Positions 25,801 through 64,000 of a DNA stretch of 64,000 bases are shown piece after piece (the stretch's first letter is position 1; each line of letters starts with the position of its first letter). Where the stretch lies: positions 1-64,000 of the forward strand of contig KZ538364.1 in assembly GCA_000934665.2 (NCBI GenBank), given 5' to 3'. The translations under genes and the position numbers were made by a program. The DNA comes from Catajapyx aquilonaris. Its lineage: Eukaryota. A model generated the notes under the pieces. The model was not told where the DNA came from, did not search any database, and worked only from the letters and a program-made list of their open reading frames with translations.

Positions 25801-28800
25801 ATATGGAAGCTTCCAATGAGATGAAAATGGGACGGAAAACCCCCCCTTTTTCGAAAGAAGGTGGTCCTGCGAGGATGCTGCGGTGAAGATAAAATCTGGA
25901 AGATAGTCATTGGGATTTTCTGCGATATATTGTGTTCTTTGGGGTTTGGATTGTTGCGCGCAAGAATAGGGCGACAAAATGGAGGTAAAGTGTGGACAAC
26001 TTGGATGTCCCACTTGAGTGCTGCGGACTAATCTGAAGGCGGAATCTGGCCCCATTTCCTTCATCTTGACAACATATAAACCCTCTCGTCGCTTTTCTCT
26101 TCTTGATCCGACGACAACCTTCCGCGAGGGAACAAAACGCTCCATAAAAGATCATCCGGGGCAAAGGACCCCGGAAATTGTCACCTTAGCACCATCCTCA
26201 TTCTGTCCTCCCAAATCGTAAATTCCTAGTTTTTTTTGCCACCCCATCCCCCTGCCCCTCCCCATTTCTTTTTCATAGAAGTGTAGGCGATGAAACGTTC
26301 CTGTCCGTCATATTTTTCTGAGAGACTGAAGAGTCAGCTCCACTACTTTTTCTCTTTCTTCTCACACGCTCATGTCATTCTCCTGGAAGCTGAGCTACTT
26401 CTAAAGTCCCTGGGTTATACGGCCCCCTCGTTTATGGCACCGGTTTCAGGGAAGATTTGGGTCGTAATACATCCTACTTTTTTTTACAGCTATAGATCCA
26501 TGCTGTTTTTTTTTTTTTTGCAACGATGAAATATTATCAGCAACAACAATCTTGCCAAAATCGTAGCTTCCCATTTCCGTGACCAACTTTCATAACAAGC
26601 AGATAGGACTCAGCCTATGTAATTATAGTCAAAAAGTTGCAGGGTGTTTCAACTTTTTTGTCCGAACAGTTATATAGGAAAATTGCGCGCAGCTGCTACT
26701 TTGTAAGCAGTGACTTGCAACCGGTGATTTGTCTGGGGAATGGGGAAAAAGAGGGTCACACATCCCATTGCATGTGTGACGCTCTTTTTTCCAGGCTTGA
26801 CCCTCAATTTTCAGCGGGTATGCCACTTCAACCTACGATTCGCAGAGAATATTCCCCGTTCCTCCGAAAAATCACCGTTTGCAATAAGTCACTGCTTACA
26901 AAGTAGCAGCTACGTGCAATTTTCCGATAGCTGTTCGGACATAAAAAGTTGAAACACCCTGATGTATATAAGGTGAAATTACCTCAAGATCTGCCCCTGG
27001 GTACATGGGTTGCAGCCTGAAGTAGAGAGCCCAGGGCAATGTGATGGAGATGGAGTAGAGCCATATGAGCAGGAGGATGAGCCTGCATCCCCTGGAGGTG
27101 ATCTGCCACTTCATAGGGTAGCAGATGGCCAGACATCGCTCCACAGAGATGGCCACCAGGGTGTTGACTGACGCGGACACAGACACGCCCTGGAGGTACG
27201 GCACCGTCTTGCAGATCACCCAGCCCAGGATCCAAGCTGGAGATGAGACAAAATCACACATATACTGTCAAATTGTCCGGGGCGAGTCATCAGCATCATC
27301 GCTCAGAATGTAGTACCACTTTCTCCCACAGTCGCTCAGTGGCAGCAGTGTGCAGAGAGGGAGTGTGCGCCATCTATGTGCGACATATGTTACTCCTTGC
27401 TGCCAACGAATGCTTTAAAATGAGATTTAAAAACACCCTGTAGTTTTGATCCGACCCCCAAAATCTTCCGGTTTATGCGACAAACGTTGCAGCAAGAGCA
27501 CATTTCGCTCATGCACTGACGCTTCCATAATAAACCGGCCGTAAGTTAGTACTCTCCAAGTCAATATCTAGTAGAGAGGGGGTGGGTCTCTCCCCCCTCT
27601 AACTATATATCCACCCCCCCCCCCCCNCCCCCCCGACACCATCCTAAATGCAAAAAACGTGCCGTGAATATCTGATTGGACCAGTAAAATATTCCCTGTG
27701 CGTCCCTGCTAGGCAGTCTGAAAAACCCGTGTAATTCACTTGCCGCGATTTCCAGAGAGCCTTTGGGTATGGGGGGAGGGGGATTAAGGATTCGCAGCTA
27801 TTCCCCTAGAACTAGAAACTAATTGGATAATGACCACGCTTGACCTGTGTCCTAGCTGGTGCTGACCTTGCAAAGCGACCTCATTTTTTTGTGTGCATAA
27901 AGTGGATCACACCAAAGCTGTTGTCCAGAATGTCCATTACAGACTCCAGGAAGAAATACATATGCCAATATTTCGCACGCCAAAAAATCATATGTTTATC
28001 TCTATTATTATAATAAAAGACAAAGTTTGTTTGTTTGCCTGCTTGGTTCCCATTGGCAACCTGGACAAACAAACAAAGAAACATTGCCTTTTACAATAAT
28101 ATTTATTTATAAAAATATCATGTTTTTCTCTATTATTATAAAAGGCGAAGTTGGTTGGTTTGTTTTTCTAGGGGTTTGGTTATACCATGGCAACCTGGAC
28201 AAACAAACAGACATACAATAATTTCCTTTAAAAATCGGAATGCCATGGTACCGAAATCTGTATAAAACAAACAAAGATTTATTGAATATGAATATGCAAA
28301 ATATTTACGCAAAAAAATCACATGTTTATCTCTTATTATAGGATTGTAAAGGGGAAAGTTCGATCAGATTTGGTTACCATGGCAACCTGGACAAACAAAC
28401 AAACGTTGCCTTTTGCAATAATATTATTTTTTCGTGAATATTTTTCATACATTTATTCATATTTTGTTCGTTTGTTCATATTTGGGTACAGTAGCCTACT
28501 GGCCAATAATCGAGGCAACGACTAGAGACATTTTCCCGAAGCGGCAGAAGAAGGAATCTTGCTCGCCCGGCTTCTATAGCATGCTTATCTTCGATTCCTT
28601 CTTCTGCCGCTTCGGGAAAATGTCGCTAGTCGTTGCCTCGATTATTGGCCAGTACTGTACCAGAGAGATTTGAACGAGAAAATAAACAAACAGACTTTGC
28701 CTAGCAATTTATAATATTGCACGCTTAAATATTTTTATCGAATATGTATACACAGTTTGTGGAGATAGTTAAACAGTGTTTAGACATACGTTTATGAATT

Positions 28801-31800
28801 CCGACCGTGACCTTTGATCGCACTTTAAATGTCGCCCTGGATTGAAGAGGGGGTTTATTGCAGTGACGTACGACGCATCTCGCCTGTTAATGGACCTTTT
28901 ATCATGTAAACAAAAAAATGCATTTTCCAATGGCGAGCCCCTGGCCACAACTGATGGCCCCGAGGCCAAATAAAAACCTGCCTCTAGGCTATCGATAGCC
29001 TCTCCCCCCCCAAAAAAAAATCGATCTCTAAAAATCTAATCACAGATGACATTTGGAGTCATTTCAACTGGACTTTCTTCCGGGACCAATTTCATTGAGT
29101 TGTGTAAACACATCATTTTTTTCACTCTCTGAATTTTTTTCTTCCTTTCTACCCGGACCCTCTTTTCCGCAAAAGGCACACAAAAAAATTTCAAGAGAAA
29201 TCAAGTTTATTATGCGAATCCAAAATCGGACCAAATCCGGAAAACTTTGATTGCTTGTTAAAGATGAAACTCTCCCCGGTGGAAAAGCAAATGGATTCGG
29301 CAAACCCTCTTTTTTGCTGCACACTTTGACGCAGAATAGTGAAAGGAAAAGGGTAAAGAAGCTTTTTAGATGAAGCTAACATTTTTTTTGCGACTTAAAA
29401 AAAAATGTTAGAACTCCAAGACACATTGCGGCCATTGCCATCCGGGATATTTTTACATATTGCATTGTGATTGTAATGCTGCTGTTTGAATATATACCGT
29501 ATTTTTAAAGCAGCCGCAACGACCTCCTTTTTTATAAATAATTGCGACATACGAAGTGCACCATTTATTTTCAACGAAATGCTCCACTTGCATCCTTTAC
29601 TTATTATTTTGTATTAATATACTGAGTCTTTCTCCTAACAAACATCCGACGCTTATTCTCTCCCTCGGATGTTTGTCCTATCTGATAGTACCGCTATCTC
29701 TCGCAGATCTGAGGGTGGCAGGAGTGTGCAGAGGAAGTATGCGCCATCTATGAGTGAAGAATAATACTACATGGTAAATCGACGGGTCATCTCATTAAAG
29801 TTGTTTGATTGTCACTGTCATATACTAATTTTGGCAATGGGTTAACTAGTTTTGTAATAGTACTAGTAGTGAACCAGTTGCCAAAATTTGGCAACACTGC
29901 CCGGCCCTCCACTTGGGCGTAGTACGATATGACAACCAGATGGCGCTCAATCCTCCCTCTCTGCACACTACTACTCCACGTGGAGACTATGGTAACTACA
30001 TGCACCTAGGTACGTAGGGACAAAGTCACGCCTAGCCAATTCTATATTTGATGCAAGGTGAGCCAAAATGTCCTATTGTGTACTAAGCTGCTCATTATAA
30101 TATTTTGGTTACTACTAATACTACCTTGATACTACTAATAATTTGGTTAAAATTACCTGTTCATTAATGTTGTTGTTTACTAATAATTTGGTTAAATCAA
30201 CTGCTCATTAATGTTGTTGGTTGCTAATAACTGTTCAATGATGTTGTTTTCTAATAATATTTAGGTTGAAATAAACTGTTGTTGTTTGCTAATAATATTT
30301 AGGTTAAAATTAACTGTTATTGTTTACTAATAATTTGGTCAAATCAATTGCTCATTTATGTTGTTGGATACTAATAACTGTTCAATGATGTTGTTGTTTA
30401 CTAAAATTTTGGTTAAATCAACTGCTCATTATGTTATTGGTTGCTAATAACTGTTCAATGATGTTGATTTCTAATAACATTCAGGTTAAAATTAACTGTT
30501 CGTTAATGTTGTTTACTAATATTTTGGTGAAATGTAACTGTTAATAAATTATTGTTGTTCCTGTTTACTAATATTTTGGGGCGAAATCAGCAGTGCTCAT
30601 TTATAATCAGCTTATGAAATATGACTGAAACGGACACCATCAATTAATACACACTGTGTTACGTAACATGAGCTGCTGGAGTAATGATTCATAATGCGAT
30701 TACCGCACTTTATGATCGCATGCCTCACTCTTAGAGCATTGAGGCGTGCAGTAAAGTTCATTACCAAAAACACTGTGTAACCATGACCCGGGTCCTTTTG
30801 AGTGACGGCAAACACACGTGTGCAACAAACCTTATTTACCGCACCAGGCCGCTGGTTACTACACCTCTAAAATATTTAATTGTGAGTAGAGTTTGCTCAT
30901 TAATTCGTCCGGACGCTTGATGTTTGCCGTCGACCATGCGTTTCATCTAATGACACTTTTTTTTCGATGACTATTATACCAGTCCTAGCAATGACCTCTC
31001 TCTTTTTTGAACACTGTCGCCGAGAAAAGCAACAATTGGGCGAAATTTGCATATTCATGTCTGCCAACTGAACGCGGTTTCATTTAAAGCTATATAGAGG
31101 TCTCTCTCTCTTTTTGAACGAAATGTGTTTGATTCCACGCCCTTCGTTTAACCCCTGCCCTTATATGTGCACAGCTGTGTCAATGGCACGTGTTGGCCTA
31201 CAGCTTATTTTGGTTCCCTATGGACCTTCGAAGCCGTGAAAATACACGCCCTTTGACCTTGACCAACCTGCTGGAATATTTTTATCGCCAATTTTGTAAC
31301 CCAGCTCGATTTATATTTGTTTATTATATTTAAAAAAAAACTGGGTGGAATTTTCGTCCCATTGCTAGTTATGCTGCGACCTTATTGGCAACACTGGTTC
31401 TGCTATAATAACTTATTAGCAGCACAGCAGTAAATAGCAGTAGTACAGAGTGTCGATGTCAAGCTTTCCTCAAATTGAAATAAATCAACAATAGTCATTA
31501 TATCATTATTTTCTACAATTTGTATTTACGAGACATTTTGTTCTTTCCCAAGTGTAGCGTTGGAAATAAGTGCAGCACTTATATACCAGTACATCGTGCA
31601 CTCTGCGTGAACTGTGATGCGCATTCGGTTGTACGGGTCTTCAATTAGCTCTGAGGACGGAAATGGGACTGTTTACTGTAACTGTGGGGACATTTTCAAA
31701 TTGTGGGGACATTTCTGGTCCCCACAATTGATTTCACCTGTTGGGTACATCTTTAGTGTCCCCACAATTGGGTCTCTTTAAAAACCATTTATCTCAGCCT

Positions 31801-63536: not shown

Positions 63537-64000
63537 TGCTCAAACCGCCTTACTCATCGCCCTGGGAAAAGAGAAACAATGATACAGCACATGCTACTCC
63601 ACTAGACTGTTTTTAACGAACACAACTGAGTGCGCATCACAGTTCGCGCATTGTGCACGGTTGGCATTATCAATTATAGCTCCGTTGACATGTGATGATT
63701 GTACGCTGGGAACCGTTGTCCTCCTAAAAACCTATACAGGTTATAACGGGGTAAATTAAAGAAATATAGCTCTGTATTAGTAGGTGCATTGCGCTGCACT
63801 TATTTCCAACGCTACTCTTGGAGGGAAACAAAATGGCTGACGTTTACGACGTTCCCAAAGCTGTAAGCTATAACGAACCTCATCAGAGGCTACGGGTGTG
63901 AATTATTTTATGGCCCCATGGGAGTAACTCTGGCAACGTTGTTATCAGAACACTGGAGCTGCGCTAGTGTGGGTGCGCACTCGTCATCATTTAACCAGCT

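Follow-up and report, generated by a model that had tools for sequence, protein, structure and literature searches.

Splice variants of peptide G protein-coupled receptors (GPCRs) mostly alter tails or loops. The alternative exons of the insect ETHR gene are mutually exclusive and encode transmembrane parts in the rear of the receptor, and in the protocadherin and UGT1A clusters several large 5′ exons that carry their own start codons are joined to common 3′ exons. The splicing of a class A neuropeptide receptor gene into two functionally distinct isoforms is reported for ETHR-A and ETHR-B of insects (PMC5572281), and the Gr39a gustatory receptor locus is reported to have alternative large 5′ exons that are spliced to common 3′ exons (PMC2204066). 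For the arthropod SIFamide receptors, two major branches are distinguished, and two receptor genes are described in cockroach and termite (Veenstra SMYamide preprint; PMC4237046). In that published work, and among the annotated proteins that were compared, SIFamide receptors are the products of separate genes, whereas the stretch of DNA analyzed here (the window: 64,000 nucleotides of Catajapyx aquilonaris, GenBank assembly GCA_000934665.2, contig KZ538364.1, positions 1 to 64,000) contains one gene of this type with two exons, A and B, for the first two transmembrane helices (TM1-2). We propose that this is one receptor gene with two alternative 5′ coding exons that are both used, exon B being an old and divergent homologue located within the first large intron, and we give this proposal a probability of about 0.58.

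The locus reads as one minus-strand class A GPCR gene of the SIFamide/NPFF type, extending from 63561 to 22321. Reading and translating the DNA yielded five coding exons on the minus strand, namely two alternative fronts and three common exons that form the body of the receptor. These are listed below with the donor sites of the fronts and with the one longer assembly gap inside the gene (ICL and ECL, intracellular and extracellular loop; a slash marks the splice point).

63146..63536, minus strand: coding part of exon A, starting with Met, 130 codons plus 1 base; N-terminus, TM1, ICL1 with RSPRMR, TM2
63140..63145, minus strand: exon A donor, GTAAGT, phase 1, context ...AATG/GTAAGT
53027..53363, minus strand: coding part of exon B, starting with Met, 112 codons plus 1 base; N-terminus, TM1, altered ICL1 with RASCMR, TM2
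53021..53026, minus strand: exon B donor, GTGAGT, phase 1, context ...GCCC/GTGAGT, at the same position in the family as the donor of A
50439..50450, no strand: assembly gap of 12 N between exon B and the shared exons
26983..27236, minus strand: shared exon 3, TM3, ERC motif, ICL2 and TM4; enters in phase 1 and leaves in phase 0
23864..24051, minus strand: shared exon 4, end of ECL2, TM5 and start of ICL3; phase 0 in, phase 2 out
22321..22888, minus strand: shared exon 5, TM6 with SWLP, TM7 with NPILY, C-terminal tail and the stop codon TGA at 22323-22321

Each of the two front exons can be joined to the same body. Neither contains a stop codon, hydropathy analysis reveals two hydrophobic spans in A and likewise two in B, and both match positions 1-46 of the Pfam 7tm_1 profile well above its curated cut-off of 30.5 bits (A, E 1.8e-11, 44.5 bits; B, E 4.1e-11, 43.3 bits). 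Both also end at profile position 46 in a phase-1 consensus donor, and exon 3, which starts at 27236 right after ...tctccag, continues the profile from position 51 (E 5.1e-14, 52.8 bits). Splicing of A or B to this acceptor gives frames of 466 and 448 residues, respectively, each with a single terminal stop, and the junction peptides read SNIIN-A-WILG with A and SNIFA-P-WILG with B. The initial annotation of this DNA, made from the letters alone, had claimed just this arrangement, that is, two intact but divergent exons, ending at the same protein position in phase-1 donors and joined in frame to one TM3 exon at 27236, and the present analysis bears it out at every point. It had however placed the locus at 26983..63561, of which the upper end stands but the lower does not, since the gene continues down to the stop codon at 22323-22321.

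Class A receptors are recognized by an Asn in TM1 (GN), an Asp in TM2 (LA.AD), an E/DRY-type motif after TM3, xWxP in TM6 and NPxxY in TM7. The predicted proteins carry GN and NLALAD in both A and B, ERC in exon 3, and SWLP and NPILY in exon 5, and potential glycosylation sequons are found in both N-termini (NVS and NYT in A, NLT in B). The 335-residue body gives one uninterrupted alignment with a SIFamide receptor of termite, in support of the exon borders. By similarity, the receptor is a member of the group formed by the arthropod SIFamide receptors and the NPFF receptors, which are related to them in vertebrates: the closest solved structures are those of human NPFF receptor 2 (E 1.3e-16) and NPFF receptor 1 (E 4.6e-16), exon 3 is at most 76% identical to named SIFamide receptors, and the named best matches of A and of the body are SIFamide receptors or SIFamide receptor-like proteins of termite, cockroach, bugs, planthoppers and decapods, with at most 76-77% identity per exon.

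Searches of the window yielded two fronts but only one body. With tblastn, every one of 16 homologues used as queries gave two TM1-2 matches, A and B, and none gave more than one match to the TM3, TM5 and TM6-7 exons. Family hidden Markov models (HMMs), run over 2669 six-frame pieces of the 64-kb window, gave E-values of 4e-34 for A and 4.8e-31 for B with the TM1-2 profile, the next best piece being at E 0.11, while the body profile recovered the three body exons and then a plus-strand piece at 16528-16890 with an E-value of 0.016. The latter was ruled out as a receptor remnant, as Pfam identifies it as the HTTM domain of a gamma-carboxylase gene. Neither approach detected a second TM3-7 set within the 64 kb. 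The 9.8 kb that separate A from B, described in the initial annotation as gap-free and devoid of TM3-7 exons, are so according to both the tblastn and the profile scans, and A must therefore splice across B. Beyond the last exon of the receptor lie ankyrin-repeat, tektin and vitamin K-dependent gamma-carboxylase genes, all on the plus strand and all unrelated to it. Since there is no second body and the genes downstream are unrelated, B is left with no partner other than exon 3 within 53 kb, and exon 3 is also the first phase-compatible acceptor that is met downstream of B.

It could nevertheless be that B belongs to another transcription unit, either as the first coding exon of a second receptor gene with its TM3-7 exons outside the window or because faulty scaffolding at the 12-N gap put B in this place. 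Such an origin would fit with the position of B outside the clade that holds A and the best matches of the body (see below), and the gap does lie between B and exon 3. We consider it improbable, however, because a second body would have to be more than 53 kb away, across the three unrelated plus-strand genes, while a compatible acceptor, that of exon 3, is much closer. Moreover, A and B stand 9.8 kb apart in gap-free sequence with no body between them, so that the puzzle of two fronts in tandem would persist whatever is located past the gap, and the same tandem layout is encountered on a gap-free contig of other origin (L069, discussed below). As for the gaps themselves, the N positions given in the initial annotation (single Ns at 27627 and 36502, and the run at 50439-50450) are accurate, and there is one further run of N at 415.

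If A and B are alternatives, the question is how they would be kept apart. Three features are of importance here.

63537..63563, minus strand: candidate 3′ splice site of exon A (AG at 63563-63562) and a 25-nt leader with an upstream open reading frame (ORF) of 5 codons
53364..53374, minus strand: candidate acceptor of exon B (AG at 53374-53373) and a 9-nt leader; alternatively, 5′ untranslated region of a separate start site
53140..53142, minus strand: stop codon met on an A-to-B splice, in the frame that follows from joining A to B from 53372

An AG ahead of each ATG had been noted before, and it is present in both cases, preceded by 16 pyrimidines out of 18 in A and 13 out of 18 in B. The presence of a strong acceptor 25 bases ahead of the ATG suggests that A is probably not a first exon; it is probably internal and fed by an upstream non-coding exon located near or beyond the end of the window. 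Two routes to exclusivity can be envisaged. B might have its own start site and be skipped by transcripts begun upstream of A, or a common upstream exon might choose between the two acceptors. The only hint of a separate promoter for B would be the raised GC content upstream of it, over 53400-53999. Transcripts that include both A and B would undergo a frame shift, run into the stop at 53142-53140, as had been predicted, and presumably be removed by nonsense-mediated decay; this holds when A is joined to B from 53372 and presumes that the AG at 53374-53373 is the acceptor. Splicing would thus link the phase-1 donor of either front exon to the one acceptor at 27236, and the two products, of 466 and 448 residues, would have TM3-TM7 and the C-terminal tail in common and differ in the N-terminus, TM1, ICL1, TM2 and the start of ECL1.

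In these respects the locus resembles classical mutually exclusive exon pairs: A and B are homologous neighbors of the same phase, they are equal in length in their homologous part, no constitutive exon stands between them, and joint inclusion breaks the frame. It differs from such pairs in that A and B each have their own ATG, so that they may instead be alternative first coding exons, each with a donor whose phase would allow splicing to the same first constant exon. As for the frame that an A-to-B splice would enter, it is open for 148 codons across exon B (53143-53586, minus strand) until the stop at 53142-53140. This frame has no Pfam match and is probably a by-product of the high GC content of the exon.

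The premature stop brings up a further reading of B, in which it would be a poison exon that is included after A and lowers receptor output via nonsense-mediated decay, its coding capacity being irrelevant. The AG located 9 nt ahead of the ATG of B, and the stop that follows from A-plus-B inclusion, speak for such a role. A poison exon has no need, however, for an ATG, for an open GPCR frame, for conserved family residues or for a codon bias in the GPCR frame, and since B has every one of these we regard this role as very unlikely.

A more serious question is whether B is used at all. It could be an orphan duplicate, left over from an old duplication of an exon or a gene, that lies unspliced in intron 1 and is now unused, or was abandoned only recently. 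B is 50% identical to A over 72 residues, and for a copy of that age it is well preserved: the ATG is intact, the 112 codons are free of stops and frameshifts, and the consensus donor matches the homologous one exactly in position and phase. Its composition is that of a coding exon: the GC content at codon positions 1, 2 and 3 is 0.55/0.44/0.84, the value at position 3 (GC3) being within the range of 0.74-0.84 found for the other exons of the gene (exon A, 0.78). The introns flanking B have a GC content of 0.41-0.42, with 200-base bins below exon B going down to 0.27-0.39. The GC3 of B thus stands at 0.84 amid introns of 0.41 GC, whereas a long-dead copy should have drifted toward the intron value. 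In addition, the changes in B have spared the conserved columns. Among the 30 TM1-2 columns that are near-invariant (conservation of 90% or more across some 178 family rows), B keeps 26, vs 18 of the 48 other columns. A keeps 30 of the 30, and the lowest other row keeps 23. Three of the four exceptions in B, two V>I and one I>L, are conservative; the remaining one is a P>S change in ICL1. A similar second exon is also present in L069. For an old copy that is intact, biased in composition and conserved in this way, loss of use would be plausible only if it had happened very recently. The evidence thus favors a view of B as a selected and maintained coding exon, for which the shared TM3 exon would be the only available partner, and we judge an orphan duplicate to be clearly less probable than a used exon, although it is the strongest of the competing explanations.

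With regard to ancestry, exon A is, by sequence comparison, the orthologous exon, conserved to the same degree as the body. It is 62-77% identical to SIFamide receptors and SIFamide receptor-like proteins of hemimetabolous insects, and in a maximum-likelihood tree of the TM1-2 region (61 rows, 78 columns; repeated with 68 rows) it falls in an insect clade with support values of 96/84 (61 rows) and 97/86 (68 rows). B, on a long branch, is placed outside the pancrustacean clade (insects and decapods) that holds A, with support of 97/90 and 98/92. Constraining A and B to be sisters makes the tree 21 log-likelihood (lnL) units worse, with a probability in the approximately unbiased test (p-AU) of 0.053, which is borderline and does not amount to a rejection. 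Given this cost and the position of B outside the clade of A, a recent copying of A does not account for B; an old duplication within the gene could still have been its origin. In the free tree of 68 rows, B groups (93/82) with a tight set of single-exon fragments (P0020, P0037, P0048, P0100 and P0163), and a protein atlas search returned generic 7tm_1 fragment clusters, mostly from arthropods. The initial annotation had proposed separate phylogenies of the exons and had likened B to the canonical insect SIFamide receptor. The first of these gave, for the TM1-2 part, the placements of A and B just described, the 78 columns being too few to settle the origin of B. The likeness is upheld in a limited sense: B carries motifs that are the majority consensus of the wider family (TNYF, FCLPATL and SNIF), while those of A are the motifs of its own clade, to which the body belongs too.

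A second case of the tandem arrangement was encountered in metagenomic data. Scanning metagenome contigs with the TM1-2 alignment yielded 80 loci, all of which were searched with both profiles, and one of the 80, L069, a gap-free contig of 4215 bases, carries a tandem pair of TM1-2 exons, both on the same strand. (The double match of another locus, L076, was rejected as a second tandem case, as it represents one exon in two pieces.) The first exon of L069 is partial, being clipped by the contig end. Over 46 residues it shows 82.6% identity to A, which no other match of A surpassed; it groups with a springtail receptor (98/86) and ends in ...SNIYS plus T/GTGAGT, a phase-1 donor. The second exon, 1.4 kb downstream, is divergent, has its own ATG, a very short N-terminus and TM1-2, and ends in ...SNIIN plus C/GTAAGT, again a phase-1 donor. 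GC3 is 0.71 in the first and 0.61 in the second exon, vs 0.44 between and after them. B and the second exon of L069 have in common two rare changes, each at a column with conservation of 96% or more: V>I, which 3 further rows show, and I>L, which 6 further rows show. Both are also devoid of the ICL1 proline. A tree that unites the two is 7.15 lnL units better than the tree from the free search, with a p-AU of 0.708, and the data thus favor a common origin. As controls for long-branch effects, pairing B with another long row made the tree 16.0 units worse and pairing the second exon of L069 with another long row 3.1 units worse; neither pairing was rejected, and little likelihood is lost when the second exon of L069 is placed elsewhere on the tree. 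With only 78 columns and two long branches, long-branch attraction is thus a possible source of the kinship between B and this exon. One may go further and suppose that the B-type exon is an ancient alternative front module kept across hexapods, with B, the second exon of L069 and perhaps the fragments P0020, P0037, P0048, P0100 and P0163 deriving from one ancestral exon. We advance this as a tentative extension and hold it to be unlikely on balance, but if true it would mean that a single gene has been the source of two receptors over hundreds of millions of years. These would differ in ICL1 and in the parts that face the peptide (N-terminus, TM2 and ECL1), which could separate the responses to SIFamide and to paralogous peptides or alter coupling.

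The limits of the L069 comparison belong to a series of observations that weigh against our proposal, several of which would agree with B being an orphan. The profile search detected no body exon between the two TM1-2 exons of L069 nor in the 2.4 kb after them, so that the gene structure of this second case is incomplete, and the 12-N gap interrupts the path from B to exon 3 in the window. B itself is a fast-evolving copy: its end branch in the FastTree tree is 0.68, against a median of 0.096, all 16 of the 16 homologue queries score A at least as high as B in tblastn, and its relatives among 1.84 billion representatives are at most 62% identical to it. It has lost the ICL1 proline that is kept by 92% of the family (RSPRMR having become RASCMR), and its candidate acceptor has a weaker pyrimidine tract than that of A. 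Finally, a word-based search for longer annotated proteins that begin like B gave none above threshold among 427 candidates, although this is weak evidence. Against this stand the intactness, composition and pattern of change described above, and we maintain that two used alternative fronts on one body would best account for the locus.

From the sequence we infer that B is probably transcribed and spliced to exon 3, and that the two isoforms may differ in function. Ligand preference might be affected via the N-terminus, TM2 and ECL1, and coupling or trafficking via the altered ICL1. If true, a module comprising the N-terminus, TM1, ICL1 and TM2 would be swapped while the TM3-7 core stays the same, which would amount to a chimera experiment made by nature and would show what share of ligand choice and coupling resides in the front module in the SIFamide/NPFF receptor family. 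A gene with two fronts also bears on the assignment of peptides to receptors in the SIFamide literature, which is unsettled, as insects can have two SIFamide-like peptides as well as two receptor genes (Veenstra SMYamide preprint; PMC4237046).

The full-text-searched literature, supplements excluded and as far as the texts were available, contained no description that we could find of a SIFamide receptor gene with alternative TM1-2 exons. Two candidates for such variants were considered and set aside. The Portunus isoforms X1 and X2 were rejected as front-exon variants because they differ by a stretch of 47 residues comprising the end of TM6, ECL3 and TM7, and a Penaeus indicus model whose first 106 residues are unrelated is probably a gene-model error rather than an alternative front. 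Among the described systems, ETHR resembles the present locus in that two isoforms come from one peptide receptor gene, the difference being that the rear of the receptor is exchanged in ETHR and the front here. Gr39a, the protocadherins and UGT1A are many-exon arrays in chemoreceptor, adhesion and enzyme genes, whereas here there would be two exons in a rhodopsin-type peptide receptor, with separate promoters being only conjectural. The principle is thus already known from ETHR-A/B and from loci with variable 5′ exons, and the swap of a front module in a SIFamide-type receptor would, by analogy, be a new variation on it.

There are indications that front exons are readily missed during annotation. 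A search with exon 3 returned 57 proteins, 25 of which had no TM1-2 match to A or B, and in one termite gene model (among P0006 and P0172) the TM1-2 exon is fused to a Wnt domain. It seems that the large intron after TM2 often breaks gene models. Both observations suggest that front exons are easily overlooked, and that a second front would be even more so. In five metagenomic loci (L021, L025, L002, L017 and L062), the TM1-2 exon is only 0.1-2.1 kb from the first body exon, and from this short spacing it follows that a very long post-TM2 intron is not family-wide.

The neighboring genes and the introns can be described briefly. Several plus-strand open frames in 797-4262 have strong ankyrin-repeat matches (best E 1.8e-32); they seem to form the exons of a gene for an ankyrin-repeat protein, oriented toward the 3′ end of the receptor gene. 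Two plus-strand open frames in 10946-12607 match positions 1-122 and 124-376 of the 383 positions of the Tektin profile (E 1.5e-11 and 8.2e-54), representing a tektin gene with two large exons. The plus-strand region 16528-19101 encodes the HTTM and lumenal domains of a vitamin K-dependent gamma-carboxylase (E 1.5e-23, 5.2e-28 and 5.4e-26), and this gene ends about 3 kb from the receptor stop codon, on the opposite strand. A Pfam scan of the 127 ORFs of at least 95 residues gave no family, and hence no transposon domain, in the introns of the receptor gene, and no Rfam family reached its gathering score within the window. The tandem repeats of the introns are unremarkable; in the large intron, arrays are present at 33096-33365 and 31694-31770, with units of 81 and 38 bases, respectively, and a palindromic core, GTGGGGACA...TGTCCCCAC, is common to both.

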